A stretch of 64,000 nt of DNA from an uncultured candidate division Zixibacteria bacterium (GTDB taxonomy: Bacteria > Zixibacteria > MSB-5A5 > UBA10806). Location of the stretch: contig CAWFQL010000003.1 in NCBI GenBank assembly GCA_963817915.1, positions 57,414 through 121,413 on the forward strand. The letters are read 5' to 3'. This document shows positions 6,600-29,098 of this stretch, piece after piece. Each line of letters opens with the position of its first letter. Position 1 is the stretch's first letter. Below the pieces are notes generated by a model, which saw nothing but the letters and a program-made list of their open reading frames with translations, did no database searches and was not told where the DNA came from. The position numbers and the translations under genes were made by a program.

Positions 6600-6735
6600 C
6601 TGGGATATCAACTGCGCTTTCCGGTCGCCCGACCCGACATAAAACAATTAGCCCTGCATACCAAAAGTAGGCCAGGAGTTGGAACACTCCTGCTATCAAA
6701 GAGCTGTCGGGTCGCCTGACCCGACAGCTTAGTTC
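6600..6735. repeat. Palindromic repeats (gtcgggtcgcctgacccgac family plus a caggagt hairpin)
   Basis: cggtcgcccgacccgac (6615). gtaggccaggagttggaacactcctgc (6662). ctgtcgggtcgcctgacccgacag (6703-6727). The same 20-bp palindrome recurs at 15.9-16.3 kb, 18.04 kb and 18.23 kb. Confidence 0.7.
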
Positions 6736-6810
6736 GAAATCAAAAAACGCCCTTGGGAAATTCAAGTGCTATCGGGTTGCCTCATCCGACAGGAAATTTC
6801 CGAAAGCATA

Positions 6811-9372
6811 TTATGGTTGCTTGGGAGTGAGCAGAAAATTCAGATTTTCCAATGCCGCATTGGTTTCCGATGGGGTTATTTCCATCTCGATAAACCCCGG
6901 CTCGGAAATATACCCAAATTTTATCAGCTGTTCGGAGTTTATATAAATTTTGTATTTTCCCGGTACCAGCCCCTGATAGTAATACTCGCCATTGCTGAAT
7001 GCTGTCACCTCGCTGACAGCTTCTGTGGCCGTATTCATTATCTCCACCTTGAATCCGCCGACTCCAGTCTTGCCCTGGGCTGCTTCCTTTTCTATAAATC
7101 CGCTGATATCGCTGACCACCACGAGCGGAACCTCGACCCCGGTAACAATATTGGGATCGCATAATATCTTATAATTCTCATGCGCCGGCTTCAGGCTGGG
7201 GTTATCGATACTATTTAAATCTATTTGTACCAAATAATAATCGTATGGCCTCAGGCCTTCATAGTAATACACCTTACCCGATGACGCGGCCTTTTCTCTG
7301 CCGCTAACTATTTTTGCTTTGATACCTGAAATAATTTCTTCGTTTTTGTCCCTGACTCCGTCGAAATCATCATCGCGGAAGGGCTTTATTAACGCCGACC
7401 CGAATCCAACGCCGTTTCTACGGTCGAATCTAATCGCTCCGCCTTCGCTGTCATACCGAACCGAACCTTTCTGCACCTGGCTCATCGATGTTGTACTGCC
7501 CGTAGAAAGAACTCTCGATGTAAAATTAGCGAATCCCGTAAAAAGATTGAAGGTCAACATATAGAGATTAGACTTGGAGCTCTCGTTCCGTTCAAATGAT
7601 AACGACAGCTGGCCTGTCCGAAAAACCCTTCGACCCATTACGATACCATAGCTTGCCATTCTATTCTGCATATGATCGAATACAAACTTGAATTTCGGCT
7701 GTACCCACGGGATTAACGAAGTGGAAAGCAAGGCCTGACTGGTCAAATCCTGCGAAGAGCGATTGGGGAATATCGATATCTTATATCTACCCGAATAACT
7801 GAACTGAAATCTATTAAACGAAAGATTGAATCCGTAATTCATATTGATATTATCGAGATTGCGGAATTTATCCCAATTGACATTATATCGAAATCCCAAA
7901 TATCGCCCGCCTATTTTCAATGGCGCCGAGAATGCCATTTGAACACTATGCTGCTGCCCAAATCTGTTTTGGAATTTACTTTCATAATATTTCGTATATC
8001 CCGCGCTGATATTTAAAATCGAAAGCTTGCTGTAGTTAAGCGCCAGGCCGGCAGATTTATTGGGAGCAAAAGATCCGTTAACCGTGAGATTGCCTCCCAT
8101 CTGGTAGGTGGCGTCAGTCCCGAATGATGGCTTTTCATTGTTTCGCGATTCGATCGGCAGATCGGAGCTGACCCCCAATGTCAATTTATCGCTTATGCCG
8201 TAATATGAAGTAGCCTGAGCGTATTTGCTGTTTTCATCCGGAATTGTAGCTGTGCCCGCGGCTACGGAGTATTCGAAATTATTCTTTGGGACCAGATTAT
8301 ACGGAATTCTGATATATTTTTCCTCCGTTCGTATTTCGCCATTGGGGCCGTACATTTTGAGGGATATTACCGATGCCCCATAGTAAATATCCACATTGAA
8401 ATTGTAATCGCCATTATGATCAGTCGCCTGAAAATCTGTGAGCTTCTGGTCGATATACAATTCGACTTCCCAGCCTTCGCCCAGATGATCCGCGAGATTT
8501 AATGTCTGAAAATATTTTCTCTCGACCTGAGGTTTATTGGTAATCATTCCGCCTTTCAGACCCCTTGAGAAAAGCCCGCTGGTATTGATATTTCCAAGGT
8601 CCGCCTGAGTCAGATAATGATTATCATTGAAAAAGTAATGCCATTTATAAATCATCTGATTGGATTGAATACCCGTGACACTATTGCCGCCGCCGGTCAC
8701 GCTGATATCTCCACCGAGAACAATGCCGCCGGCGTTGAAATCAAAATATTGTCCTCCGCCTCCCAAGGGGCTTGCCGATACCGCCCAATCTACAACTCCG
8801 CCATTAAAAATATCCCGTTTTCGGGGAATTACCTTAACATCCCGCGGCGCCGCGGCCTTGGCCTGAATGCTTTCGTGCTCTAATTTTCGTTTTAATTTTT
8901 GGTACGATGGAAATTCCTTGTTCAATGGGAGATAAACCCGCAAAGCTGAAAATTTGAAATCCATCTTCAAGCCGAAATACTCGTCAAATAGATCAATCCT
9001 CAGATAAAGATCCCGTGAATTCAAATAATAGTCCCATATTCTCAACGGTTTTATCTTGCCGGCGATTTTGGCTTCGGAATTAATCAGGTCAAGTTGATAA
9101 CGCTGATTTGTATTGATGATATAACCCGCGTATCTCAATTTTAGCGAATCATATTCGATATGCAGATCGAGAAGCCCGAATATTTCATTCAACGGCAGAT
9201 AGACCGTAGAGCCGTCATACTGGACAAATAAGTCAGTCCTGATAAGTTGGGGAACATCGAAACCGACAACGATCTCTTCATATGTTTTCTCCTGCGCCAA
9301 CACCAAAGGCGCGGAGAAAAAAAACGATATCAGAACGACCAAGACTAAGTTTCGGTTAATCATTGCAATCAT
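6811..9372 (-). CDS. Outer-membrane fimbrial usher-like protein, last gene of the chaperone-usher pilus operon
   Basis: 853 aa with a signal peptide (MIAMINRNLVLVVLISFFFSAPLVLAQE), a beta-rich central region and C-terminal beta-sandwich-like segments (GFKVEIMNT...GEYYYQGLVPGKYKIYI). Size and operon position (after pilins and chaperone) match ushers. Homology is inferred from architecture and context, not verified by alignment. Confidence 0.55.
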   Translation of the reverse strand: MIAMINRNLVLVVLISFFFSAPLVLAQEKTYEEIVVGFDVPQLIRTDLFVQYDGSTVYLPLNEIFGLLDLHIEYDSLKLRYAGYIINTNQRYQLDLINSEAKIAGKIKPLRIWDYYLNSRDLYLRIDLFDEYFGLKMDFKFSALRVYLPLNKEFPSYQKLKRKLEHESIQAKAAAPRDVKVIPRKRDIFNGGVVDWAVSASPLGGGGQYFDFNAGGIVLGGDISVTGGGNSVTGIQSNQMIYKWHYFFNDNHYLTQADLGNINTSGLFSRGLKGGMITNKPQVERKYFQTLNLADHLGEGWEVELYIDQKLTDFQATDHNGDYNFNVDIYYGASVISLKMYGPNGEIRTEEKYIRIPYNLVPKNNFEYSVAAGTATIPDENSKYAQATSYYGISDKLTLGVSSDLPIESRNNEKPSFGTDATYQMGGNLTVNGSFAPNKSAGLALNYSKLSILNISAGYTKYYESKFQNRFGQQHSVQMAFSAPLKIGGRYLGFRYNVNWDKFRNLDNINMNYGFNLSFNRFQFSYSGRYKISIFPNRSSQDLTSQALLSTSLIPWVQPKFKFVFDHMQNRMASYGIVMGRRVFRTGQLSLSFERNESSKSNLYMLTFNLFTGFANFTSRVLSTGSTTSMSQVQKGSVRYDSEGGAIRFDRRNGVGFGSALIKPFRDDDFDGVRDKNEEIISGIKAKIVSGREKAASSGKVYYYEGLRPYDYYLVQIDLNSIDNPSLKPAHENYKILCDPNIVTGVEVPLVVVSDISGFIEKEAAQGKTGVGGFKVEIMNTATEAVSEVTAFSNGEYYYQGLVPGKYKIYINSEQLIKFGYISEPGFIEMEITPSETNAALENLNFLLTPKQP

Positions 9373-9411
9373 AACGCTCTTAATAGAATTGCTATTTCCC
9401 CCAAAAATAAA

Positions 9412-10278
9412 TTATTCGACTCGGGCAATCACCGAAATTTTATTTCCCGTAACCATATCTTCCGCGGCAATATCCGTGCGGCCTTCGGTCCCGATCGTAA
9501 TCTCAACTCGATATGGAATCGATTTTTTGTCAAAAGCTATCGGGATAACTCTTCTCAGCTTCCGATATACAGCCAGATCTACCTGATTGCTGCCCATCTC
9601 ATTATTGTCCGAATCGAATAATCGTATTTTGAGGACTCCGATATAGGAAACATTGCCTCTGTTGAGCATATCGGTTGTCACCCATACTTTGCCGTTCGCA
9701 AGCTGGGCTAAGGCCTTGACAAGTTGAATTTCCGAATTGAGATTTCCTTTTCGATATTTGAGCATAATCGCCGTCTGGGTGACCAGGCTAAGCTTCGTTG
9801 AAATCTGCCCGTTTTCATTTGCGGCGGGCTCTCCGGATTTGGCTTCTTGTGAACGAATAACAATTCTTGCCCAGTATTCGCCTTCAGTCAAATCCGAAGG
9901 AGGGGTTGCTATGATCCTGATGACCTGCGAACCGCTGGGGGGCAGCACGATCTTTCTTGGGAACGCTTTTACCCATCCCATTGCTGAACGCTCGTCGGTA
10001 ACATTGGAATCCTGCAATGTCATAGTGACATTGCCGAGACTATCGGATTCCGGCAGCCCAAAACCGAAAAAGATCGTCACCTCTGCCGCGGTGGCCGATG
10101 GGTTCTGCAATGTCAAACGACCCGTGCGGCTTTTCTCGGACAAAATTACGACTGTCGGCGCAACCAGCACTCCGGCCATCAAATTGACAGCCAACGATAG
10201 TTCAATAATCAAAATGCTTATAAAGACAAATCTTTTGCCGCCGCGCTTGAGCTCGCCGCTTGTTTTCATTTTTCTCAT
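9412..10278 (-). CDS. PapD-like periplasmic pilus chaperone
   Basis: 288 aa with a signal/anchor sequence. N-terminal sequence (APTVVILSEKSRTGRLTLQNPSATAAEVTIFF, PRKIVLPPSGSQVIRIIAT) fits the conserved chaperone beta-strands (…RVIY…; …ivtPPlfrl.pg..q.lRi…). Sits between the pilins and the usher. Confidence 0.55.
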   Translation of the reverse strand: MRKMKTSGELKRGGKRFVFISILIIELSLAVNLMAGVLVAPTVVILSEKSRTGRLTLQNPSATAAEVTIFFGFGLPESDSLGNVTMTLQDSNVTDERSAMGWVKAFPRKIVLPPSGSQVIRIIATPPSDLTEGEYWARIVIRSQEAKSGEPAANENGQISTKLSLVTQTAIMLKYRKGNLNSEIQLVKALAQLANGKVWVTTDMLNRGNVSYIGVLKIRLFDSDNNEMGSNQVDLAVYRKLRRVIPIAFDKKSIPYRVEITIGTEGRTDIAAEDMVTGNKISVIARVE

Positions 10279-10326
10279 TTTATCGCTCCGTTATTTCGCT
10301 ATGAATTAGCCGATTATTATCAAATC

Positions 10327-10929
10327 CTAAAGACCATTGTATGAGACTATAAGCACGATATTGCCGGAGTAACTTCCAGCCTTCTGATTAGCGGATGGAA
10401 TCACCTTGCCTCCGAGATATACCTTCGTATTGCTGCCGGTGCTTCCGATTACCGCTCCAGCCGGTAGATTGAATGGATTCTGATCGATCCAGCCATCGGC
10501 ACCTATCATCGTCGAAGGCGTCGCGGTATTCGATGTATCCACCGCCGCGCTTGTGATCCCGAATGCTATCGTCATTCGATCCGACCCGTCGGCCAACGAT
10601 AGATATTCGGGCAGTACCAGTTGCAAATTCACTCCCGATCCCGCCTGGCCAGCTACAGTGAAAATAGCCGTGGAATCGTCATCATTTCTGCCGACAGTTT
10701 TGGGAATTCCCTGGAATATATTGCCAAAATCCAATGCCTGTGTCGCCGTTACCGTAAGAGCCGCCTGCACTGTCGCGGTGGCCTGCCCAGTCGCCACATC
10801 CTGAGCTAAAGCGGCCACTGTGCTCACTAATATCGAAGCCAGAACAAATGCAAATAACCCTGCTAATCGCTGTTTTCGATTAACGCCAATAACTGATAAA
10901 TTTTTCATAGATCTTTTCACTGCTTTCAC
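10327..10929 (-). CDS. SCPU-domain (Csu-type, sigma/archaic chaperone-usher) pilin paralog 5 of 5
   Basis: 200 aa with signal peptide. Conserved blocks shared by all five paralogs: A.LDFG.IFQGIPK, LPEYL.L.DGSDR, NPF..PAG, YLGGKV.PS.NQKAG.YSG.IVL.VSYN. The LNFG-like and C-terminal G.Y.g.ivLtV.Y motifs are hallmarks of the spore-coat-protein-U/CsuA/B fold. Confidence 0.6.
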   Translation of the reverse strand: MKAVKRSMKNLSVIGVNRKQRLAGLFAFVLASILVSTVAALAQDVATGQATATVQAALTVTATQALDFGNIFQGIPKTVGRNDDDSTAIFTVAGQAGSGVNLQLVLPEYLSLADGSDRMTIAFGITSAAVDTSNTATPSTMIGADGWIDQNPFNLPAGAVIGSTGSNTKVYLGGKVIPSANQKAGSYSGNIVLIVSYNGL

Positions 10930-10940
10930 ATTCCCAATTC

Positions 10941-11501
10941 TTAGCTGCCGTTGTATGAGATAGTCATGACTATATCGCCCGAATAATTTCCAGCCTTTTG
11001 ATTAATCGATGGATTTACTTTTCCTCCCAGATAGATATTGGTGCCCGCGGAGCCGATAACAGTGCCTGCCGGAGGGGCATAAGGGTTGGTATTTTGCCAG
11101 CCACGCGAGGCATTCATGGTTGTCGGATCCGCCGCGCCGGTCGTATCGATAGAGACGTCGGTTGCTCTGAAAGCAATTGGAAGCCTATCGCTGCCATCGG
11201 AGAGCGCCAGATATTCCGGAAGCTGTATAAGAATCTCAATACCCGATCCGCTTTGTCCCGTGATAGTAAAAATCGCCGCGTTGGCAGTATTGTTTGCAAT
11301 TGACTTAGGGATACCCTGGAAAACTTCGCCGAAATTCAATGCGCCGACCGCTGTTACCACGATATTCGATAAGACTGTAGCGTTGGCGTTACCGACCGCT
11401 ATTTCCTGTGAGTTGGCTGTTTTAATTGAAATGAACAACCCCAAAATCAGTACAATTTGTACGAGCGAAACCTGAGTAAATCCGGCGATTTTTTTAAACA
11501 T
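10941..11501 (-). CDS. SCPU-domain pilin paralog 4 of 5
   Basis: 186 aa with signal peptide. ~55% identical to the 10327-10929 paralog by eye (ALNFGEVFQGIPK, LPEYLALSDGSDR, GNYSGDIVMTISYNG). Confidence 0.6.
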   Translation of the reverse strand: MFKKIAGFTQVSLVQIVLILGLFISIKTANSQEIAVGNANATVLSNIVVTAVGALNFGEVFQGIPKSIANNTANAAIFTITGQSGSGIEILIQLPEYLALSDGSDRLPIAFRATDVSIDTTGAADPTTMNASRGWQNTNPYAPPAGTVIGSAGTNIYLGGKVNPSINQKAGNYSGDIVMTISYNGS

Positions 11502-11639
11502 CTCTTTAAAGCCAAAAACCTGTTAATAAATGAAACACTAAACCCTATCTTTTTATCGTCATCCTGTGCAAAAAATTAACAATCGGGGAAGTATTTTGGG
11601 GTAATTGTGAAAATAGGAAGACGCATAAAAAACCAAATA

Positions 11640-11676
11640 AAAAAAGAGAGGGAATTCAATTTCCCCTCTCTCTAAT
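11640..11676 (-). terminator. Intrinsic terminator inside the pilus operon, after the third pilin gene
   Basis: Minus-strand hairpin agagaggg-gaaattgaattc-cctctct followed by a TTTTTTaTTTggTTTTTT run. It starts ~15 nt downstream of the stop of CDS 11691-12260. Confidence 0.6.
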
Positions 11677-11690
11677 CTTTAATCTGTATT

Positions 11691-12260
11691 CTACTGATTA
11701 TTGTAAGCGACCATAAGGACTATTTCCGCGCCGTATGTGCCCGCGGTCTGATTGGTCGATGGCCATACTCTGCCGCCGAGATACACATGGGTACCCGCTG
11801 GACCGATGACGGAAGAAGCCGCCGGAATAGCATATGGATTTTGGTCAACAAATCCATCGCCAGCCACCATCGCTTCAGGTGTTGCCGGGGTGAGTGTATC
11901 GACTGCGGCGTCGGTAGCCGTAAATGAAATCGGCATACGGTCATGACCATTAGCGAGAACAATGTATTCCGGAAGAATAAATTGAAGATTGATACCTGCC
12001 TGCTGTCCGGCGATATCAAATATAGCCGCGGAATCAGCGCCAGCGCCCGATGACGGAATGCTTTTGGGGACACCCTGCCACAATGTTCCAAAGTCCAATG
12101 GAGCTGTTGCTGTAACCACTATCAATGGAACTACTGTTCCTGTTGCTGTTCCGGTGGCAACATCCTGAGCGAATGTTACACCGGATGAAATCGCCAGTAT
12201 TAATCCAACAAGGATTAATATCATCCCTGATTTCCGGAAACTTTCTTGTCTCAATTTCAT
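11691..12260 (-). CDS. SCPU-domain pilin paralog 3 of 5. Candidate major subunit because the terminator follows it.
   Basis: 189 aa with signal peptide (MILILVGLILAISSGVTFA). Motifs PLDFGTLWQGVPK, LPEYIVLANGHDR, GTYGAEIVLMVAYNN. Confidence 0.6.
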   Translation of the reverse strand: MKLRQESFRKSGMILILVGLILAISSGVTFAQDVATGTATGTVVPLIVVTATAPLDFGTLWQGVPKSIPSSGAGADSAAIFDIAGQQAGINLQFILPEYIVLANGHDRMPISFTATDAAVDTLTPATPEAMVAGDGFVDQNPYAIPAASSVIGPAGTHVYLGGRVWPSTNQTAGTYGAEIVLMVAYNNQ

Positions 12261-12433
12261 CTCATCCTCCTGATGTATTTGTTTTTCATAATCATCATTC
12301 TTTAGTTTTTTTTGAAATTCCTATAGAGACAAATCGGCTATAAAGTTGCAGTTTTTATCAGAAGGGGATGAATTTTGATTTATTTACAAATAATATGATT
12401 CAGATGTGAACAGTCACGAACCCCGAATATTGG

Positions 12434-12970
12434 TCAATTACCGGTATAGGTTACTGTTAATACTATCAATGCTGAATAGTCCCCGGGTTTTTGGGCCAGC
12501 CCGGGCACAACTGTCCCCCCCAGCCAAAGGCTAAGTCCATTAGCGCCAAGCCGATAGATTATCGTATGCCAGGGATCGATATTGTTAACCGGAGGATTCG
12601 ATTGATTGGGGGTAGAACTCGAATCCAGCGCGCAATCGGTGGAAGAAAAAATCAACTGCATATTGCCGCCGGTCGTATGGAGATACGTAGGTAATGCGAA
12701 ATCCAACGTTATCTCAGCATTGGGGGTGCCGGTAATAAAAAATTCGGCAGCGTCTCCCGCCGATGTCTTGCTGATAGCCTTGGGTACGCCGGGAAATACC
12801 GGGCCGAAAACGAGATTGTTATTTATCGTTATTGTCTGCGCGTAAGAAATATCGGATGAACACAGAACAATAATCGCCAGGGCCGGAAACACCCAAAAGC
12901 CTTTGGATAATTGCCCCGCTTCAAATCTGATTTTGTCTCTCATCGCGTGTATTAATATTTTAAAAATCAC
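12434..12970 (-). CDS. SCPU-domain pilin paralog 2 of 5 (divergent)
   Basis: 178 aa. FGPVFPGVPK, ITLDFALPTYL, LWLGGTVVPGLAQKPGDYSALIVLTVTYTGN. Its C-terminal block is shared with the 13029-13565 paralog. Confidence 0.55.
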   Translation of the reverse strand: MIFKILIHAMRDKIRFEAGQLSKGFWVFPALAIIVLCSSDISYAQTITINNNLVFGPVFPGVPKAISKTSAGDAAEFFITGTPNAEITLDFALPTYLHTTGGNMQLIFSSTDCALDSSSTPNQSNPPVNNIDPWHTIIYRLGANGLSLWLGGTVVPGLAQKPGDYSALIVLTVTYTGN

Positions 12971-13028
12971 GCGTTGTCAAAGCATTAGGCGCCAATTCGG
13001 CGAAATCATTTCTGCCGGCTCAGTCTTT

Positions 13029-13565
13029 CTAATTGCCGGTATAAGTGACTGTCAAAATAATATCTCCCCGGTAACTGCCGCTTGTCTGCGAACGTCTCGG
13101 AAAAACAGTGCCGCCAATCCACACGGCCATGGTGCCGTCAGTCCCAAGATTTCTGACATTGATGCCGTGGGGATTGAGAATTCCCGCCGGAGTTAGCTGG
13201 CCGAGCCCGAGGCCATTTTCATAAGACGCATCGATGCTGTTAAAACCGATTCGCATGGCCGAAATGCCCCCGACCAGGTAGATTGAATCAGGCAATGAAA
13301 AATCGAGTATAATTTCAGCCGCTGAACTGCCTGTTATCTGCCATTCGCCCGCGTAACCGATTGTGGTCTTATTGATCGTCTTATTAACGCCGGGCATGAC
13401 ATACTCGAAATTCAGATTATTGGTGCCGATTACTGACATGCTCGGTAATACTACCGCTATCGCCTGTACGCTGGCGGTCTCCTGGGCACTTGTAATCATT
13501 GGAGACACTACCGCTACCAGGCAGATCATGCCAACAAGCCATGATGACCAGTTTCTGCAAGACAT
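13029..13565 (-). CDS. SCPU-domain pilin paralog 1 of 5 (first gene of the operon)
   Basis: 178 aa with signal peptide. IILDFSLPDSIYL, VWIGGTVFPRRSQTSGSYRGDIILTVTYTGN. Confidence 0.55.
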   Translation of the reverse strand: MSCRNWSSWLVGMICLVAVVSPMITSAQETASVQAIAVVLPSMSVIGTNNLNFEYVMPGVNKTINKTTIGYAGEWQITGSSAAEIILDFSLPDSIYLVGGISAMRIGFNSIDASYENGLGLGQLTPAGILNPHGINVRNLGTDGTMAVWIGGTVFPRRSQTSGSYRGDIILTVTYTGN

Positions 13566-13738
13566 AAACCCCTCCTTGCTTAAGCCTATGAAGTTTTCGT
13601 TTCACATAGGGAAAAAGCAAGAAGGATGCCAGACGTTATGCCTGCATATCTTTAAGTTGTTTAACGGGTTACGGGCGGCTGTTCGAAGGTGCTTTAGGCC
13701 AAGTATGGGGTTATCCCCATACCTCTATAACTTAACCC

Positions 13739-14896
13739 TCAATCGAAACTTAGCTTGATATTTACTATCTCAGGACGATTACCAATTCTGACCGGCGGGC
13801 CCCAGGTGCCTACTCCGCACGACACATAGAAATTCGTACTTCCCTTGAGCCAGTAGCCCCAGCTGATTTCGTAAACTTTTTCGGTGATATAGTTCAATGG
13901 CCAAATCTGCCCGTGATGAGTATGGCCGGATATCTGAAGATCAACACCATTATCCGATACTTCCTGCAAATTAAACGGCTGATGATCAAGCATGATTATC
14001 GGATAATTTTTGTCAACCTGATCCATAAGCTCTTGAATCTTTTTTCGTTGGATTCCGGAAAATCCCCCCTTGGAACGATCCTCTCTGCCCACGAGATAGA
14101 AAAGATTATCTACCATCGCCACGCTATCCCGAAGCATAGTAATGCCATGATCCGAAAGATACTTGCAGGCTTTTTCAGCGCCTCCAATATACTCATGATT
14201 GCCAGTTATGGCATAAACTCCAAGCGGCGCTTTGATCTGCTTCAATGCCTCTCCGATATTCTCCCTGATAACCGGCCCCAGGTCCTCATCGACAATATCA
14301 CCGGGCAGAAAAACTATATCGGGCTTGAGATCATTGATCATTTTTATATAGCGATCGACTCTCTTCTTGCCAATAATCGCCCCGATATGAATATCCGACG
14401 CGCTGACTATATTCAATGTCCTTGGCCCATCGACCTTCTTGGCGATATGCAAAGTTAGAGTCTTTACCCTCGGGAATGTGGCATTCAGATGGCCAATTGC
14501 CAGCAGCAGTGTTACCAGCGATAACGCGCCGATTGCGATGACCAATTTTGTTTTAGCATAATCCGCCTTTATGACCGACGGATAATACGGGACAAAATGA
14601 TTCACAAGCCGGGCCAAATCGAGAAGAACTACAGTCAAAAAGAAATACAGCAACGCCGCCAGCCAGAATGACCCGATCCAAACAAAAATATCGCTGACAG
14701 GGGAAAGCCACACTCGTTCGAGAACTCTACCCCCGATAAATGACAATGAGACTATGAGAAACAAAACAATATAGTATGGCTTCAATGTCGAACCGTTCGG
14801 CAACGCCTGCCATCCACGGATAAAAATATAAAAATTAATCAGCCCATAGAGCGCAAAAAAAATCGTGAAGAATACAATTATAGCCGATATTTTCAT
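13739..14896 (-). CDS. Membrane-anchored metallophosphoesterase (calcineurin-like)
   Basis: 385 aa. N-terminal ~5 TM helices, then a phosphoesterase domain with the canonical motifs SDIHIG, GDIVDED, GNHEY and GHTHHGQ. Confidence 0.75.
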   Translation of the reverse strand: MKISAIIVFFTIFFALYGLINFYIFIRGWQALPNGSTLKPYYIVLFLIVSLSFIGGRVLERVWLSPVSDIFVWIGSFWLAALLYFFLTVVLLDLARLVNHFVPYYPSVIKADYAKTKLVIAIGALSLVTLLLAIGHLNATFPRVKTLTLHIAKKVDGPRTLNIVSASDIHIGAIIGKKRVDRYIKMINDLKPDIVFLPGDIVDEDLGPVIRENIGEALKQIKAPLGVYAITGNHEYIGGAEKACKYLSDHGITMLRDSVAMVDNLFYLVGREDRSKGGFSGIQRKKIQELMDQVDKNYPIIMLDHQPFNLQEVSDNGVDLQISGHTHHGQIWPLNYITEKVYEISWGYWLKGSTNFYVSCGVGTWGPPVRIGNRPEIVNIKLSFD

Positions 14897-15157
14897 TTTA
14901 GTTATTCCGTTTCCACTTCATCTTTCCATTTATTACTTTCACACCTAAATACCAAATAACCCATATACGTAATTTAGTTGCAATGGTTCATAATGTCTAA
15001 TCTTATAAAGACGTTTTGTGGCATGCTTGCGTGAAATGCTAACTATCCCGTTGTGCCAGATCGTAGTCCGCCATAGACGAACGTGATCTGGCACCTAAGA
15101 AGCCTGTTTTCCCTGAAAAGGCTTGCTTAATCAGCGTCAAGATGATTAAAATCAAAT

Positions 15158-15670
15158 GTGGATAGGACTATTAGAAACGACAAGAAACATCCGAAAAGAT
15201 CAACAGTCTTTCTCGGGATAATCGGCCAGAAGAAAAGCGGCAAGACGACTCTGGTCGAAAAGCTCGCCTCCGAATTCAAATCACGAGGTCTGACAGTCGG
15301 GACAGTCAAATATTCCTCGCACGATTTGGAATTCGATTCCCCCGGCAAGGATACCGAACGCCACAGGCGGGCGGGTTCGTCCATATCGTTGATAAAGGCC
15401 TCGAAAAATTGCGCCATCTTCTCGGAATCCGAATATCTAACCCAGGAAATGATTACCGAAATATTCAAACCCTGCGATATCGTCTTTATCGAGGGTGATA
15501 CCAAATCCGAGAACCCCAAAATCTATGTTTCCGATGGCCAACCCGTGCGGTCCGGCATCGGCGGCGAGATTATCGCATTCTGGGGTGAAACAGGGCAAAA
15601 GGATAAGCCTTGGTTTGTTGATATCAAGTCAATGACAGATTTTATTTGCGATAATCTTTCAATAAAATAA
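15158..15670 (+). CDS. mobB: Molybdopterin-guanine dinucleotide biosynthesis protein MobB-like P-loop protein
   Basis: 170 aa. Walker A GIIGQKKSGKTTLVEKL. The length and layout are typical of MobB. Confidence 0.55.
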   Translation: MDRTIRNDKKHPKRSTVFLGIIGQKKSGKTTLVEKLASEFKSRGLTVGTVKYSSHDLEFDSPGKDTERHRRAGSSISLIKASKNCAIFSESEYLTQEMITEIFKPCDIVFIEGDTKSENPKIYVSDGQPVRSGIGGEIIAFWGETGQKDKPWFVDIKSMTDFICDNLSIK

Positions 15671-15698
15671 TTCTTCATAAATATGTGGAGGAGCAATA

Positions 15699-15869
15699 AT
15701 GGGCAAAGAACCTGAAATATCAGTTGAGCTTACAGTTAATGGCGAAAAGATTGAGATGAACGAATTCGTTCACAAGGTCACCGGCAACGTAATCAATGGT
15801 ATCCTAAAATCACTCCGTCTCGAAAAACCGCCTCAATCCGCTGTGATTACATTAAAATACAAATCTTAG
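15699..15869 (+). CDS. Small hypothetical protein (56 aa), not in the ORF track
   Basis: atg at 15699 preceded by the Shine-Dalgarno-like sequence tgtggaggag. Translation MGKEPEISVELTVNGEKIEMNEFVHKVTGNVINGILKSLRLEKPPQSAVITLKYKS. Follows mobB with a 28-nt gap. Confidence 0.3.
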   Translation: MGKEPEISVELTVNGEKIEMNEFVHKVTGNVINGILKSLRLEKPPQSAVITLKYKS

Positions 15870-15924
15870 ATCATTTGGCCATGCCTCAGGATTGGAGGTT
15901 TTTTTAGACATCCTGAGGCTTTAT

Positions 15925-16400
15925 TAAAGGTGAGGTCGGGTCGCCTGACCCGACCGACATTGAGTCTCACCTAGTGATGTCGAGTCGCAGTACCTGACCA
16001 GAATCTTCTCCCCGATTTTTGTCGATTATTCTATTTTAATTGAATATTAAAAGTGAGGTCGGGTCGCCTGACCCGACCGACATTGAGTCTCACCTAGTGA
16101 TGTCGAGTCGCAGTACCTGACCAGAATCTTCTCCCCGATTTTTGTCGATTATTCTATTTTAATTGAATATTAAAAGTGAGGCCGGGTCGCCTGACCCGAC
16201 CGACATTGAGTCTCACTTAGTGTCGTTGAATCGCAGAACCCGACTAGAATCTTCCCCCCCGATTTATGTCGATTTTTCTATTTTAATTGAATATTAAAAG
16301 TGAGGTCGGGTCGCCTGACCCGACCGACATTGAGTCTCACCTAGTGATGTCGAGTCGCAGTACCTGACCAGAATCTTCTCCCCGATTTTTGTCGATTATT
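15925..16400. repeat. Tandem array: 4 copies of a ~122-bp non-coding unit
   Basis: The unit is (a/g)gtgaggtcgggtcgcctgacccgaccgacattgagtctcacctagtgatgtcgagtcgcagtacctgaccagaatcttctccccgatttttgtcgattattctattttaattgaatattaaa. Copies begin at ~15928, 16052, 16173 and 16297. Copy 3 diverges (ggccggg, cacttagtgtcgttgaatcgcagaacccgactag, ccccccc). Each unit carries the 20-bp gtcgggtc-gcct-gacccgac palindrome. Confidence 0.85.
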
Positions 16401-16496
16401 CTATTTTAATTGAATATCCCAAATTAATATGCTAATATTGCCGGTCTTATAGAAGGTGGTGGGAAGGGGATTAAATCTTAAAAATAGGGGCCAGGC

Positions 16497-18017
16497 ATGA
16501 ATGCTCAAAAAAGAGAAAATTTATTAAATGAACTATATGGCTATATAAAAGAAGTCACTACTCTCGGCGGCTGCATCGCGCTGCTTGACTGGGACGAGCG
16601 AGTCTATATGCCGCACATGGGCTCCGAAAATCGCGGCAATCAGGTCGCGCTTTTAGCAGGGATCATCCACGATAAATTCACCTCGCCGCGGGTCGGTGAT
16701 ATTCTCAATGAGCTAATAGCCGATGGATTGGATATTAAAGAGGACACGGTTGATTCGGCCAATGTCCGCGAGTTGAAACGAGCCTACGATAAGCAGTTCA
16801 AAATCCCGAAATCATTGATCGAAGAAATAAGCCGTACCGCCACGAGGGCGCAGGGAGTTTGGCAGGACGCCCGTGAAAAATCGGATTTCGCCATGTTTCA
16901 GCCCTGGATGGAAAAAATGGTCGGCCTCAAACGGCAACAAGCCGAGGCGGTCGGATATGTTAAATATCCCTATAACGCTTTATTAGATGATTTCGAACAG
17001 GGAGCCTCCACCGATGATATCACCAAAGTATTCGCCGGTCTGCGCGACGAGCTTGTAGATCTCATTGCCAAAATAAAAAATTCCGGCAAATCACCCGATA
17101 CCTCGATAATCCTGCGAGATTATCCAGTCGAACGGCAGGCACATTTCGGCACTGAAGCTGCCAAGGCAATCGGCTACGATCTTGCCGCCGGACGAATCGA
17201 TATCACCGCCCATCCGTTCTGCACAACTATCGGCCCCGGCGATGTCAGAATCACGACCCGTTATAATCCCAATCATTTCCCGCAGGCATTTTTCGGTATC
17301 ATGCACGAAACCGGCCACGCCATGTACGACCAGGGCCTGCCAATCGAGCATCATGGCACCCCCTGCGGCGAAACAGTCTCGCTGGGAATTCATGAATCGC
17401 AATCGCGAATGTGGGAAAATCTCGTGGGACGAAGCCGGGCGTTCTGGAAACATTTCTACCCCAAGGCACAAGCGCTCTTCCCTGAAGCCCTGAAAAATAT
17501 TTCGCTCGATCAATTTTATTTCGCCATCAATGACGTCAGGCCATCGATGATCCGTATCGAGGCCGACGAGGCCACATATAATCTCCATATCCTGCTTCGA
17601 TTCGAAATGGAGACCGCGTTCTTCCACGACGAAATCAAAATCTCGGATGTCCCCGCCGCCTGGAATGAGAAATTCAAAAAGTATTTCGGTTTAGTCCCCA
17701 AGAATGACGCCGAGGGATGCCTGCAGGATGTTCACTGGTCCGCCGGCTTGATCGGATATTTCCCGACCTACACGCTTGGCAATCTTTATTCAGCTCAATT
17801 CTATGAAACAGCCCAAAAGAGCATCGGAAATCTGGATGATAAATTCGCAAGGGGCGATTTTAGCGATCTCTTGAAATGGTTGCGCGAGAATATCCATCAA
17901 CACGGCCAACGGTACCGTCCCGAGCAATTGGTGATGCGGGCCACCGGCAAGCCGCTTTCCCATCAGCCCTTGATGAATTACCTCAAGACCAAATTCGGCG
18001 AGCTCTACGGGATATAA
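16497..18017 (+). CDS. M32 carboxypeptidase (carboxypeptidase Taq family)
   Basis: 506 aa. HEXXH zinc motif HETGHAMYDQG and the IRIEADEATYNLHILLRFE segment diagnostic of M32. Confidence 0.8.
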   Translation: MNAQKRENLLNELYGYIKEVTTLGGCIALLDWDERVYMPHMGSENRGNQVALLAGIIHDKFTSPRVGDILNELIADGLDIKEDTVDSANVRELKRAYDKQFKIPKSLIEEISRTATRAQGVWQDAREKSDFAMFQPWMEKMVGLKRQQAEAVGYVKYPYNALLDDFEQGASTDDITKVFAGLRDELVDLIAKIKNSGKSPDTSIILRDYPVERQAHFGTEAAKAIGYDLAAGRIDITAHPFCTTIGPGDVRITTRYNPNHFPQAFFGIMHETGHAMYDQGLPIEHHGTPCGETVSLGIHESQSRMWENLVGRSRAFWKHFYPKAQALFPEALKNISLDQFYFAINDVRPSMIRIEADEATYNLHILLRFEMETAFFHDEIKISDVPAAWNEKFKKYFGLVPKNDAEGCLQDVHWSAGLIGYFPTYTLGNLYSAQFYETAQKSIGNLDDKFARGDFSDLLKWLRENIHQHGQRYRPEQLVMRATGKPLSHQPLMNYLKTKFGELYGI

Positions 18018-18034
18018 ATTTTGATTTTGTGTGG

Positions 18035-18255
18035 TCGGGTCGCCTGACCCGACCACAGCTTTGTCATTATCGTAGGGATTTGATTCATCAAACCCCAGAG
18101 CCTGTCATTCCGCACTCGATGCGGAATCTTGCGCGCTCCTAATTGTAGGGCGGAACTCCTGAGTTCCGCCTATTTGTAATCGGCCCAAAAAAGTCCGAAC
18201 CTCGGGGGTTCGGACCTACTAGCTTTTGTGAGGTCAGGTCGCCTGCGACCTGACG
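18035..18255. repeat. BIME-like cluster of about 6 palindromic units
   Basis: gtggtcgggtcgcctgacccgaccac. gtagggatttgattcatcaaacccc. cattccgcactcgatgcggaat. gtagggcggaactcctgagttccgcc. gtccgaacctcgggggttcggacctac. gtgaggtcaggtcgcctgcgacctgacgacc. Confidence 0.7.
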
Positions 18256-18261
18256 ACCGAT

Positions 18262-18885
18262 CTATTTCCGAATCAGCTTTCTAATATCGTCCTGATCGCC
18301 AACCAAAAACGTATGCGGTGTCTTTATCGCTGAATTCAAAAAATGATCATCGCTTTTGAGCTCTTCCCGAAATTCATCGATCGGCAAAATGGTTGGATTG
18401 ATTGTACGGCCCAATAGCTCCTCAGCCTTGCCCACCGCGCTGGCGAATTCGCTGAATTTCAATTTGCCGATAATCGTCAGATCGATATCCTTATGATCCG
18501 TTTCTTCGTCATAGGATGGCAGGCCATCGATATACGCGATCTTGATTTTCTGCTTCATCGGTTTCAACGCCGACTTCAAAATCTCCGCCACACCGAATGT
18601 CTTATACACGATGCCGCGAAGCTCCTTGTAAATCGGGTTGCCCGCGTTGACCGAATAGAATGTCTGCCGCCCGCGGACCTCGGCATTGAGTACTCCGGTC
18701 GAGACCAGCGATTTCAATTCTCTCTGAATCGCTCCCTGACGGGTTCCTGTCGCCCTGGCAACTTCCGAGAAGTAATAATGTTTGTCGCTATTGAGGAAGA
18801 ATAACGACATCACTTTTTTCCTTGTACTGCCGAATAATGATTCAATCATAGCTTGCCTCATAGTCAAATGCCGCTTTAATATCAT
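18262..18885 (-). CDS. Winged-helix (ArsR-like HTH) DNA-binding protein with an uncharacterised C-terminal domain
   Basis: 207 aa. N-terminal HTH pattern FSEVARATGTRQGAIQRELKSLVSTGVL. The C-terminal ~100 aa has no confident assignment. Confidence 0.4.
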   Translation of the reverse strand: MILKRHLTMRQAMIESLFGSTRKKVMSLFFLNSDKHYYFSEVARATGTRQGAIQRELKSLVSTGVLNAEVRGRQTFYSVNAGNPIYKELRGIVYKTFGVAEILKSALKPMKQKIKIAYIDGLPSYDEETDHKDIDLTIIGKLKFSEFASAVGKAEELLGRTINPTILPIDEFREELKSDDHFLNSAIKTPHTFLVGDQDDIRKLIRK

Positions 18886-18944
18886 GCTTACCCATTTCGG
18901 GTATTTTTATACCCAATTTAGGTATTTCCGTCAAGCAGAAGATT

Positions 18945-19355
18945 GCACCTTATTCTGATGTAGTCGTAGGGCGGAACCCCCGTGGTTCCGCCATTCCGAG
19001 TGCGGTCGGGTCTCCGCACCCGACCGAAAACCCCGATATCACCGTAGGGGTTTGATTCATCAAACCCATCTTTGGAAAATCTCAAACATTTCGCAGGGGC
19101 GTTTGAAAAAACGCCCATTTGCTGGGCGGCAGGCGTCCCGCCTGCCCCTTGTATAGAAGGCAAAAAAAGAGTCCGAACCGCGGGGGTTCGGACCTACTGT
19201 AAAACCGTCATTCCGCATCCGTCGGTCGCCGGACTGCAAGGCAGCACCGATGTGGAATCCGCGCGCTCCTAATCGTAGGGCGGAACTCCTGAGTTCCGCC
19301 TATTTGTTTTAGGCAAAAAAAGAGTCCGAACCGCTGGGGTTCGGACCTACCGTAT
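18945..19355. repeat. Dense BIME-like cluster of about 9 GTAG-type palindromic units
   Basis: Units in order: gtagggcggaac-ccccgtgg-ttccgcc. gtcgggtctccgcacccgac. gtaggggtttgattcatcaaaccc. ggggcgtttgaaaaaacgccc. ggcggcaggcgtcccgcctgcccc. gtccgaaccgcgggggttcggacctac. cattccgcatccg...gatgtggaatc. gtagggcggaactcctgagttccgcc. gtccgaaccgctggggttcggacctac. Confidence 0.75.
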
Positions 19356-19381
19356 CGAATGAGTAAATTGGGGGCATGATA

Positions 19382-21637
19382 TCAACTGTCAAATCTCTGC
19401 TTAATGTATTCCTGTGTCTGCTTCGCTGTTAGTTCTGTAGTGGAGGGGCCGGTTCGAATGTAAAACCTTTCAATATCTCCGTCTTTTACAAACTCTGCCT
19501 TAGTCGCCCTACCGCATTTAATGATCATCACTCTGCTATCATCGTAATCTTCAAAGTGAACATGAATTTGGGTCATAGCCAGTGGCCCTATTCTGCTCTT
19601 GACTATATTAACTAAATGCAAGCTCATCTTATCTTCATCGGGGAATCCATCCGCTTTAATATCCGCCGAACCGCCATCATCGTGCACACCAATAATCAAA
19701 GTGCCCCCGTTTGTATTGAGGAATCCTGCGATTGTCTTTAGCATTGATAGTTCAATCCGCTGGTCAGGGCTCCCAGTATGCAGATTTGTTCTTAAGGTCG
19801 CCTTGAATTCGACAGCTTCGGATTCGCCGTTTTCTATTATTTGGCTCAAATCTAGTTCTTTTAATTTAGTGTCCAGGTTTATATCTGCGACTAGTGTTTC
19901 ATACCCTTCACGAATAATTTCAGCCATCAGTTCGCGTCTTTTGACCAGGAAATCATTATATTCTAAGTGTTCCCAGTTTTCGGGTAGCGCGTGCCAATGA
20001 TACATTTCAGATAGTTCATTGTGACCAAATCTAGAATTGAATTCGGCTAAATATTCGGCGGGTGGTTGTATAGAAATTTTTGCATTATCACCCCATTCTA
20101 CGTAGGAGTAATTTGCAATTTGATTGGTTTCTCGAATACCCTTAATATTGATTTCCTTTAGATATTCCTTCGGAAATAGATGATGTCTTTCGACTGCTGA
20201 ACGATTTCCTTGCATTGCCGGGTCAAACAAATCAGCTACTTTGATTTTTGAAAATAACGCTCGAGCGTCTAGAAGTACAAGTGCGGCTTCAAAAGCAAAC
20301 AATGAGGGGCTTCGTGAAGAGGATGTAGCCAAATCGTTTGGCAAAGTGACAATCCAGTAGTCAGATGTTAGAGTAATTTCGCAAATGCTTTCAAGTATCC
20401 GGATGAACTGATCGCCCTCTTTTATTTCCCTGAACCGCGCAAGATCAAACTCCATAGCTGATTCCGGAGAGCCAGTGAACCGGCCGGTGACGCTGGACAT
20501 AAAGAACCAGCGGGCAATAACTCGCCGAAGCTTGAATTCATTTATGCAGTATTCCGTGCGGCCGATCAAGTAAAGAATGTATGAGAATAATAAGTTGTTT
20601 TGGGAACTGATCATCTTACCGCTTCTGAAACCGGCCTGCCTGATACAATTCATGAAATCATGCCAATACTGCAAGTTCAGAACACGACTTTGGGCTTTCT
20701 TTAGAACGTCAAATTGCGCATTCCTTCGCTCTTCGCTAAATTGCTCAGTCTCAAGGTCCTTACCCCGAAGGATAGAATATACATATTGTAGGCGGGCTCG
20801 CTTAAACGCAACTCCGACACTAACTCGGAGGAGCTGATCAGGGCCTGGTTCTATAAAATAGTTGAACGGAGAAGCATCAACCTTTGAGGGTCGCTTGGAA
20901 GCCAGACAAAACTTCTCAAGTTCCTTGCGCCCATCGTCCCAAAATACAGACATTAGAGTCAGAATAAAGTCCGCCTGGTTCAGAGGCGTTCCTTTACTAT
21001 TGATGCGCACAAAGACATCTGAAACATTTTCTTCAGAGATGTTCGGAGCCAATTCAAGAGCGGTGAAAGGAAAGCTCAAAAGTCCATTAAGTTTGGTGAT
21101 AGTCCTCTGAATTCTCCTTTTCTCGTCATCTTCGATTTCTCTGGATTCACTCAATCCAGCTAGGTATTTTTCGACTACTTCAAAGAGATCCGTTTTTTTG
21201 TTCCATAATAAAGAGATATCAGGTATAAATGTTTTATCGCGACGTATCGCGGCGTCGGCAACCTCAAACTTTTCTTCAAGCGGATTGAAGGCTATATATA
21301 TTTGTTCCTTTTCATAATTCTCTCTTATTACAGGAATGCCTTTTACAACAGCATAAAGCGAAGTCAGCCGCTGCTGACCATCAACTATGACAAGGCGTGG
21401 CGATTTTTGTTTATTCTCAGCTCCAATAGTGCGCGAGTCTGCCGCCAAACCGTTTTGCCAAAACAAAAAATATCCCACTGGATACCCTCGATACATCGAA
21501 TCGAAAAGATCCCTAATTTTGGCGTTCTTCCAGACAAACGGTCGCTGAATATCAGGTAAACCAATTTCGCCGAGGGCTATATATTCCATTAGCTTGGATA
21601 AGTCGTAGTCGACCTTTGCGAATAGGGTATCACTCAT
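19382..21637 (-). CDS. GmrSD-like type IV restriction protein (DUF262 + DUF1524) fused to a C-terminal AlbA_2/Schlafen-like domain
   Basis: 751 aa. N-terminal DUF262/ParB-like motif LVIVDGQQRLTSL. Middle His-Me/HNH-like DUF1524 motif (ERHHLFPKEYLK). C-terminal ~150 aa has GESEAVEFKATL...KTIAGFLNTNGGTLIIGVHDDG, a close match to the AlbA_2 (Schlafen-type) signature. GC is visibly lower than in neighbouring genes. Confidence 0.7.
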   Translation of the reverse strand: MSDTLFAKVDYDLSKLMEYIALGEIGLPDIQRPFVWKNAKIRDLFDSMYRGYPVGYFLFWQNGLAADSRTIGAENKQKSPRLVIVDGQQRLTSLYAVVKGIPVIRENYEKEQIYIAFNPLEEKFEVADAAIRRDKTFIPDISLLWNKKTDLFEVVEKYLAGLSESREIEDDEKRRIQRTITKLNGLLSFPFTALELAPNISEENVSDVFVRINSKGTPLNQADFILTLMSVFWDDGRKELEKFCLASKRPSKVDASPFNYFIEPGPDQLLRVSVGVAFKRARLQYVYSILRGKDLETEQFSEERRNAQFDVLKKAQSRVLNLQYWHDFMNCIRQAGFRSGKMISSQNNLLFSYILYLIGRTEYCINEFKLRRVIARWFFMSSVTGRFTGSPESAMEFDLARFREIKEGDQFIRILESICEITLTSDYWIVTLPNDLATSSSRSPSLFAFEAALVLLDARALFSKIKVADLFDPAMQGNRSAVERHHLFPKEYLKEINIKGIRETNQIANYSYVEWGDNAKISIQPPAEYLAEFNSRFGHNELSEMYHWHALPENWEHLEYNDFLVKRRELMAEIIREGYETLVADINLDTKLKELDLSQIIENGESEAVEFKATLRTNLHTGSPDQRIELSMLKTIAGFLNTNGGTLIIGVHDDGGSADIKADGFPDEDKMSLHLVNIVKSRIGPLAMTQIHVHFEDYDDSRVMIIKCGRATKAEFVKDGDIERFYIRTGPSTTELTAKQTQEYIKQRFDS

Positions 21638-21884
21638 TTTGTTATCTCCCCAGTTTCCATTAGGCTTGGTTAATTATTTCCAAAGTGTTATCAACCTTAT
21701 TAAAGGATTAGGCCGCATCCTTCACTTAAGAAGGTCGCTTCCTATTTGTTACTCCATCCCTCTTTCCCATAATAATAGACCTCTTCCCCCAAATTGTCAA
21801 TATATTCCAAAAACTCAAACGGCCGGAATCGCTTCCGGCCGTCGGAGAATGAAATGTCGCTGTTGTTATGTTATTGATTCTTGT

Positions 21885-22075
21885 GTTGTCGGGCCGCCCA
21901 ACCCGACGCCACTAATATGTCATGTCTTTAATTTTTTCCTGCGAGTCACAGTCTATCCGCCAGTGGCGGAGCTTGCCGTGACTGCATCCAATTTTGGTTT
22001 GCGATCAGGGTAAACCCTGACGCGCAGCAATTCCATTTTTTCGTAGAGACGCAAAATCTTGCGTCTCTACATAGT
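21885..22075. repeat. Palindromic repeats flanking the right side of the defence gene
   Basis: gtcgggccgcccaacccgac (variant of the 20-bp palindrome). A gtcacag...cgtgactgc inverted repeat. A perfect GTAG hairpin gtagagacgcaaaatcttgcgtctctac at 22046-22073. Confidence 0.6.
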
Positions 22076-28779: not shown

Positions 28780-28792
28780 TTTTGCTGTCTGC

Positions 28793-29098
28793 TGCGTGTC
28801 GCAGTTTACTGCGACCGCAAGCCATGCATCAGCGGTCAAAGCAAGCTTTGACACGCAACGAAAGTTTTCCGTAGTGGCTCAAAATTTTGAGCCCTCTTAT
28901 GCAGTAGTGGTTTGTTTTGCCGCGTGTCACAGTTTACTGTGACCGCAAACCATGAATCAAACGGTCAAAGCAAGCTTTGACACAAAAGGAAATCATTTTC
29001 TTCTTATCATTCCGCACCCACCACAGCGGGTCTAAATCGGCTTGATGCGGAATCTAGCCTTGAAATAACTCGCAAGATTCCTGCTTTCGCAGGAATGA
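28793..29098. repeat. Repeat cluster: two family-F structured elements plus GTAG, cattccgca and cctgctttcgcagg hairpins
   Basis: Family F copies at 28793-28860 and 28918-28990. gtagtggctcaaaattttgagccctc. tcattccgcaccc...gatgcggaatc. attcctgctttcgcaggaat. Confidence 0.7.

Follow-up and report, generated by a model that had tools for sequence, protein, structure and literature searches.

The window analysed here, meaning the whole stretch of 64 kb of DNA, has a core chromosomal character, with VIT1, MprF-like, GcvT, ComB and AhpC genes, and is syntenic with other Zixibacteria contigs. In its first third, mobB, a small open reading frame (ORF), an intergenic tandem array and the gene of an M32 carboxypeptidase follow one another on the plus strand. 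The features of this region are the following:

15158-15670, plus strand: mobB (Pfam PF03205 MobB, 1.8e-28).
15699-15869, plus strand: 56-aa ORF, 53% identical (E 4e-20) to the 53-aa ORF that follows mobB at 2218-2379 of the related locus L056.
15883-15921, plus strand: terminator-like hairpin GCCTCAGGAT...ATCCTGAGGC with T runs, between the small ORF and the array (-19.9 kcal/mol, z -2.5; putative function).
15922-16417, plus strand: whole tandem array, 4 x 123/124 bp and a terminal TAT (Tandem Repeats Finder, four-copy alignment).
15922-16044, plus strand: unit 1, A-type, with A8G (copy alignment).
16045-16167, plus strand: unit 2, A-type, equal to the consensus (copy alignment).
16168-16291, plus strand: unit 3, B-type, 124 nt, with 12 substitutions and one 1-nt insertion (copy alignment).
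16292-16414, plus strand: unit 4, A-type, same as unit 2 (copy alignment).
16410-16438, plus strand: possible M32 promoter, TTGAAT, 17 nt, TGcTAATAT (candidate read by eye).
16497-18017, plus strand: M32 carboxypeptidase (PF02074 on all homologues).

The gene order that had been read from the sequence alone, i.e. mobB and a small ORF on one side of the array and an M32 carboxypeptidase on the other, was borne out by Pfam matches to MobB and PF02074. All named homologues of the carboxypeptidase are from Zixibacteria, the closest being 73% identical. The ORF right after mobB is 53-56 aa long in two genomes, belongs to no Pfam family and probably encodes an unannotated small protein co-transcribed with mobB. 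A plasmid iteron, a replication origin and a centromere were also considered for the array, and were dropped in view of the core chromosomal, syntenic context. It should be added that the window contains another, in-gene tandem repeat at 37093-40357 (also 34413-36164), which is made of about 15 modules of 216 nt (72 aa), 70-73% identical, with CxxCH multihaem cytochrome motifs and matches to Pfam Cytochrome_C7 and MtrC/MtrF-like proteins. Its frame is divided among no fewer than three ORFs that overlap or adjoin one another (36748-37911, 37760-38911 and 39023-40015), and the spacing is 217 instead of 216 nt in places. This points to frameshifts, to a faulty assembly of the repeat or to a giant cytochrome gene in decay.

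Tandem Repeats Finder returned a single array at 15922-16417, with a period of 123, 4.0 copies, 92% matches and a score of 892, and the mean column identity across the four aligned copies was 97%. The sequence-only reading had placed four copies of about 120-124 bp, one of them diverged, at 15925-16400; the array itself is real, and its extent has been revised to the coordinates given here. At its 3' end stand three nucleotides, TAT, that repeat the start of the unit, and TAT can be read at both array boundaries. As had been argued before, this is not a CRISPR, since the whole 123-bp unit is repeated together with the sequence between the palindromes, and there are no unique spacers. The array had also been called non-coding, and with a minimum length of 40 aa a single ORF is found in it, 44 aa long with a TTG start and confined to copy 3. 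A coding array was accordingly rejected: the period of 123 is divisible by 3, yet all frames are closed apart from that ORF.

Each unit holds two hairpin modules of the REP (repetitive extragenic palindrome) type, one intact and one decayed, and the intact one has relatives elsewhere in the window:

15930-15955, plus strand: intact REP of unit 1, with a GTG head, a 9-bp stem GGTCGGGTC / GACCCGACC and a GCCT loop (repeat and inverted-repeat scans, family features).
16053-16078, 16176-16201 (T to C in the stem) and 16300-16325, plus strand: equivalent REPs of units 2-4.
15974-15998, plus strand: decayed second REP of unit 1, in direct orientation, GTGATGTCGAGTCGCAGTACCTGAC (repeat family D7, local alignment).
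16097-16121, about 16220-16244 and 16344-16368, plus strand: equivalents of the decayed REP in units 2-4.
6702-6729, plus strand: single dispersed REP of the GTG-headed family with a 12-bp stem; degenerate relatives at 6619-6638 and 6771-6790.
18030-18057, plus strand: single dispersed REP of the GTG-headed family with a 12-bp stem, 13 nt past the M32 stop codon.

Copies 1, 2 and 4 carry a perfect match to the 20-bp palindrome at the core of the intact module, GTCGGGTCGCCTGACCCGAC, from which copy 3 deviates at a single base. Two further perfect matches lie at 6706 and 18034, and three degenerate ones at 6619, 19005 and 21888, in agreement with the earlier statement that the palindrome occurs in every unit and is dispersed singly elsewhere. 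Altogether the 64-kb window holds five exact copies of the 20-mer and four with one to three mismatches, against none expected from shuffled sequence. The second inverted repeat that had been proposed for the unit (tcgac…gtcga) could not be recovered: TCGAC is absent from the unit, and a scan with arms of at least 8 nt returned matches of the REP stem and the AT-rich junction only. RNAfold of the unit does give a weak CGAC/GTCG pairing, which is lost in the consensus fold. The decayed REP lies 44 nt after the intact one and is identical to it at 21 of 27 positions (score 24 versus 10.9 +/- 1.9 for shuffles, none of 2000 of which reached it).

Copies 1, 2 and 4 differ from one another solely by A8G in copy 1. 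Copy 3 shows 13 differences from the A-type copies, 12 of which fall in unit positions 50-108, and a 65-nt arc of the unit carries just one of them (P about 0.012 for at most one difference), so that the differences are clustered. In this quiet arc lie the AT-rich junction and the intact REP with the 16 nt that follow it. The arc could be a conversion tract, or could reflect constraint or selection there; if selection is the cause, this would speak for a function. Where two units join, at 16034-16052, 16157-16175 and 16281-16299, a 19-nt AT-only palindrome arises (TTTTAAT-TGAAT-ATTAAAA), which is confined to these three internal junctions and missing from both ends of the array. It may have been left by the duplication, or may be a site to which a protein binds.

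The nine members of the GTG-headed family in the window (6619-21907) all lie on the plus strand, and the GC skew is negative nearly throughout the window. Although the sample is small, this could be a replication-related strand bias of elements handled as single-stranded DNA. Further families of G+C-rich hairpins, mostly with the classic GTAG head, were seen at 914-1024, 2120-2182, 18104-18254, 18966-19354, 22043-22070 and 28787-28953, grouped in few intergenic regions; examples are GTAGGGCGGAAC..GTTCCGCC with its inverted partner GTCCGAACC..GGTTCGGACCTAC, GTAGGGGCTCAAAATTTTGAGCCCCTAC and GTAGAGACGCAAAATCTTGCGTCTCTAC. Several REP families appear to coexist in the genome, perhaps together with several REP-associated tyrosine transposases (RAYTs). 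Two composite modules of about 120-145 bp, at 18104-18223 and 19210-19354, flank in direct orientation an ORF on the minus strand (18262-18885, 207 aa, with a weak DUF7342 match only). Each contains a CATTCCGCA..TGCGGAATC hairpin, a GTAG-REP and an inverted GTAG-REP, and a 61-nt core is 90% identical between the two; the pair may delimit a cassette bounded by REPs, or may stem from another duplication at this place. Next to it, at 19382-21637 on the minus strand, a 751-aa protein with GmrSD_N (DUF262) and Schlafen AlbA_2 domains, likely the product of a defence or restriction gene, has REP clusters on both borders.

The distribution of the palindrome was followed in a collection of one genome per species, where the exact 20-mer occurs at 54 loci: 32 in MAGs labelled Zixibacteria, 14 in those labelled 'uncultured Ignavibacteria', 4 in those labelled 'uncultured bacterium' and 4 in unrelated taxa, the last with neither the GTG head nor the conserved flank. 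Viral contigs gave 0 matches. The two complete chromosomes that were hit have 2 and 3 copies, and fragmentary MAGs have up to 11 loci; the numbers in the complete chromosomes, in which exact stems only are counted, are far from the hundreds seen in classic REP families. The 5' head of the hairpin reads GTG in 57 of 85 copies and TTG or CTG in 18 more; at its fourth position the base varies and is paired to the flank on the 3' side. Few variants of the inner 8-bp stem occur, and these are always compensated (GTCGGGTC/GACCCGAC, GTCGGGTG/CACCCGAC and GTCAGGTG/CACCTGAC). The two outer stem pairs covary: in a set of 73 distinct copies they show 30 and 35 double changes. Over the family, 91.8% of cells are paired, compared with 80.6% in shuffles and at most 42% with a slid partner. 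With its 9-12-bp stem and 4-nt GCCT loop the element is a short G+C-rich palindrome, i.e. a hairpin of the REP type.

RAYTs are HUH/Y1 enzymes that act on REP hairpins in single-stranded DNA. ORFs of this kind (156-167 aa) lie less than 100 nt from an exact palindrome in three of the related loci, L009, L026 and L031. Against NCBIfam NF047646 REP_Tyr_transpos, which has a cut-off of 80 bits, that of L009 reaches 99.7 and that of L031 101.7, and both match Pfam Y1_Tnp; that of L026 is linked to them by tblastn, and the three are 54-62% mutually identical. A single PDB entry was matched, that of E. coli TnpArep (4ER8, E 2.3e-11), and both the HUH motif (HIH/HMH) and Y-x-x-x-NPV are aligned. In L031 and L026 the RAYT gene is bracketed by inverted REPs. 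Close REP pairs in the relatives are inverted doublets in 13 of 16 cases, with heads outside and 28-51 nt from start to start (e.g. L026, 117-190), and the mobile form of the family there appears to be such a doublet, REPIN-like in its build. No RAYT gene was found in the 64-kb window, where the link between REP and RAYT is one of homology to other genomes only.

A gene flanked by inverted REPs is the hallmark of a RAYT locus, and the published REP head is GT(A/G)G (PMC2817692), which the head of the present family resembles without being identical to it. Because of the GTG head, the covarying stem and the RAYT genes that it flanks in relatives, the 20-bp palindrome is a REP of a RAYT-associated family spread through Zixibacteria-type genomes.

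The remainder of the unit behaves in another way. Its non-REP part of about 90 nt has no match in the rest of the window (63.5 kb) or in 58 related loci (about 400 kb), the best E value being 0.47, and a unit-specific 20-mer common to all four copies, CGACCGACATTGAGTCTCAC, gave 0 matches in the metagenome collection. These results bear on a MITE, one of the classes named in the sequence-only reading. Under that explanation the array would be a 123-bp non-autonomous element, REP plus cargo with AT-rich termini (ATTAAAA...TTTTAAT), inserted repeatedly beside itself. The ends of the unit do form a 7-nt inverted repeat, positions 2-8 being paired with 113-119 in the fold, and the array has TAT on both sides. 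RAYT/IS200-type enzymes such as IS608 and TnpArep insert next to a specific short target, and insertion of this type could yield head-to-tail copies. Against it, the whole unit was found at no second locus in the window, the 58 loci or the metagenome collection, a 7-nt AT-only inverted repeat is weak evidence in AT-rich DNA, and the mobile form in relatives appears to be the inverted doublet and not a 123-bp unit. The MITE was accordingly rejected as a class, and we regard this origin as highly improbable.

In L056, the closest relative, with an M32 protein 73% identical to that of the window, the same order of mobB, a 53-aa ORF and M32 is kept around a spacer of 157 nt that contains neither a REP nor an array. 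When this spacer was compared with the array region, only the stretch after the small ORF aligned, weakly (score 22 versus 17.1 +/- 2.4, reached by 43 of 1000 shuffles), and no counterpart of the 123-bp unit was found in it. Two other relatives have no mobB at the position upstream of M32, and in the genomes that share the exact 20-mer the M32 protein is only 60-73% identical to that of the window. Since the non-REP part of the unit is unique and L056 has the same gene order without an array, the array is the product of an expansion, specific to this lineage, of an intergenic spacer; with a single unit the spacer would measure about 258 nt.

A second array was met in one related locus, L007 (MEWP01000072.1, Zixibacteria RBG_16_53_22), where a perfect tandem of 2.2 x 127 bp at 506-786 carries a REP of the window's family and an inverted, interrupted REP. 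It lies between two minus-strand ORFs that resemble riboflavin-synthesis genes as read from the sequence. The period of 127 is close to that of 123 found here, the unit sequences are unrelated, and the copies in L007 are 100% identical. A scan of the metagenome collection for two exact REPs 100-130 bp apart retrieved this contig only, from which it follows that such arrays are rare with the exact 20-mer.

Whether four near-identical copies of a short unit are a product of assembly has to be weighed as well. It could be argued that the repeat exists and that its copy number and order (A-A-B-A) were mis-assembled from short reads: units 2 and 4 are identical and unit 1 is one base off, a period of 123 bp is below common maximum k-mers and read lengths so that identical A units could collapse, and the copies in L007 are likewise fully identical. 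However, the variants of copies 1 and 3 anchor every junction of the assembly uniquely, a collapse would make four an underestimate and not an invention, and an internal copy diverged by 11% is hard to obtain by mis-assembly. An artefact of this kind is therefore unlikely in our view.

The array is co-directional with the genes on both sides, from which it had been concluded that it is probably transcribed. The co-directionality holds, but the conclusion is weaker than stated, in that the terminator-like hairpin stands directly before the array. On its other side, the candidate M32 promoter has 8 of 12 matches, under the scan threshold of 9 of 12, and its TTGAAT is formed by the last 6 nt of the final unit's repeat. 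We infer that the array occupies a dead zone which extends from the terminator of the mobB and small-ORF operon to the M32 promoter.

Tandem clusters of small-RNA (sRNA) genes with head-to-tail units of about 100-200 bp are known, namely PrrF1/PrrF2, LhrC1-5 and NsiR1, and they offer an explanation in which each 123-bp unit is separately transcribed and the REP hairpin serves as a structural module. On the minus strand, the REP with UUUU would be the intrinsic terminator and an AT-rich TAGAAT in the unit junction a -10-like box; on the plus strand, transcription would start at the GTG head, followed by a C-rich UCUCCCC loop and then a U run. The array resembles those clusters in having a G+C-rich hairpin beside a U/T run in every unit. 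The REP followed by TCACTTTTAA (/ TCACTTTT) is terminator-like on the minus strand in three of the four units, and the T-to-C change in the stem of copy 3 retains a G-U pair on that strand only, giving a C-A mismatch on the plus strand. Furthermore, the arc that is best kept between A- and B-type units is exactly the hairpin with the AT-rich junction, and the unit folds better than shuffled sequence (z -3.4 and -2.8 for the plus and minus strands, respectively).

These z-scores are, however, largely due to the REP stem itself, and other signs of an RNA gene did not appear. Within the units the scan returned no promoter above its threshold; its one match on the minus strand (16422-16395) straddles the right edge of the array and uses non-repeat flank. 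What would be the body of the RNA, unit positions 50-108, is the least conserved part, the opposite of a seed region. The consensus fold of the four copies has no compensatory pairs on either strand, in a comparison of low power with a single diverged copy, and copy 3 breaks predicted pairs outside the REP stem, four on the plus strand and two on the minus strand. Rfam 15 at gathering thresholds returned no family for the whole window; the best sub-threshold match of the unit is PrrF, with 24.8 bits (and 17.5) against a gathering threshold of 90, and the PrrF terminator is deleted in the alignment. The unit has, moreover, no homologue in the window, the related loci or the metagenome collection. 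In the related loci REPs show no orientation bias towards neighbouring ORFs (upstream, 21 co-directional versus 20 opposed, by a rough stop-to-stop ORF proxy), which lends no support to a strand-specific RNA role. Unlike the known clusters, then, the array has no promoter, no conserved RNA body and no covariation. An array of sRNA genes is consequently an unlikely explanation, and its specific form, four independently transcribed sRNA genes in which the REP hairpin has been domesticated as terminator or 5' stem, is somewhat less likely again; if true, such a REP-derived sRNA array would explain why the hairpin and the AT-rich junction have been kept between diverged and young copies.

Of the possibilities listed before the analysis (an expanded REP or MITE array, a structured RNA and a regulatory amplification), it is the expanded REP array that is supported; the MITE fell with the lack of dispersed units, and the structured RNA gained no positive support. 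We consider it probable that the array is a lineage-specific tandem amplification of a 123-bp REP-bearing intergenic segment, and it is most likely a REP tandem cluster without a gene function of its own.

The units themselves allow a tentative history to be drawn. Ancestral states of the decayed REP are split between the types, ACCCGAC being found in copy 3 and GTCGAGTC in the other copies. Copy 3 and the A-type units, each keeping different ancestral states, are thus old sister units, diverged by about 11%, and the three near-identical A units would be recent amplifications or conversions. In the proposed course of events, a REP-bearing spacer of about 258 nt would first have been duplicated at the TAT microhomology, and the two copies would have diverged by about 11% into A- and B-type units. 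The A-type would then have been re-amplified or homogenised by unequal recombination or replication slippage, possibly aided by hairpin extrusion, to give the order A-A-B-A. The resulting array would not be a gene and would lie between the terminator and the M32 promoter. Any effect that it has is most likely the one shown for REP clusters of E. coli: if there were read-through from upstream, its G+C-rich hairpins would terminate part of the transcription and hold up 3'-exonucleases, so that M32 would be insulated from the operon before it. REP325 of E. coli is a terminator and mRNA stabiliser (bioRxiv 10.64898/2026.03.23.713779), and by analogy the array, if transcribed, would attenuate read-through and protect the 3' ends of upstream mRNA.

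Arrays of this build have been described in other bacteria. In Pseudomonas fluorescens SBW25, REPs and REPINs form ordered tandem clusters of near-identical units inclusive of their flanks, and arrays of GI-GIII REPs have a 112+72-bp spacing (PMC3116915, Bertels & Rainey 2011); Di Nocera likewise described REPs 'reiterated in tandem with flanking DNA' (PMC3733652). The present locus corresponds to an ordered tandem REP cluster as described in these papers (PMC3116915, PMC3733652), being composed of near-identical head-to-tail units, each with REP(s) and a non-REP flank. As in SBW25, the REPs are regularly spaced and in a single orientation, two REP types alternate per unit (with 44+79 bp here and 112+72 bp in SBW25), the non-REP DNA beside them is co-repeated in near-identical copies, and the REP family is tied to RAYT genes; the size of four equals that of the largest ordered REPIN cluster reported there. 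The differences from SBW25 are that the phylum is another one and the REP sequence unrelated, that the second REP of the unit has decayed, that the head is GTG plus a variable paired base and not GTGG or GTAG, and that a single array was seen, in a window of 64 kb only.

With E. coli BIMEs (BIME-2, e.g. REP325 in yjdMN) the locus shares an intergenic array of RAYT-type hairpins between co-directional genes and the likely consequence, namely partial terminators and protectors of mRNA 3' ends (bioRxiv 10.64898/2026.03.23.713779). It has, in contrast, no Y/Z2 units or conserved linker motifs, and the unit is longer than that of BIME-2. BIMEs are defined by regularly spaced REPs in alternating orientation (PMC2817692), and a BIME in the strict sense was rejected, as the four intact and the four decayed REPs are all in plus orientation. 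A likeness to REPINs exists in so far as the REP family of the array forms heads-out doublets in related genomes; the unit itself is not a REPIN, its two REP modules being direct and 44 nt apart instead of an inverted doublet. Neisserial intergenic mosaic elements (dRS3 with RS units) are similar in that a singly dispersed 20-bp repeat also punctuates arrays of 50-150-bp intergenic units. There, however, the units between dRS3 differ mutually and recur at other loci, whereas here a single unit is reiterated, and the tag (CGTC) and the associated recombinase differ too. The array is, in sum, an ordinary example, in an unusual phylum, of the REP tandem clusters known from Pseudomonas and E. coli.

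The main value of these results lies in annotation: intergenic hairpins of a Zixibacteria-type genome are REPs with a cognate RAYT in related genomes, and the array of 4 x 123 bp is a REP tandem cluster of a kind already described in Proteobacteria, rather than a MITE, a CRISPR-like locus or a novel RNA gene. In two respects the case is slightly out of the ordinary. A REP/RAYT system is documented for a candidate phylum that belongs to the FCB group, its 20-mer being shared across genomes, and the array is arranged head to tail, which has been reported to be rare (PMC3733652). Should the number of copies differ from strain to strain, the locus could be used as a strain marker; should the array be transcribed, it would lend itself naturally to a test of whether REPs insulate a downstream gene from the operon before it.
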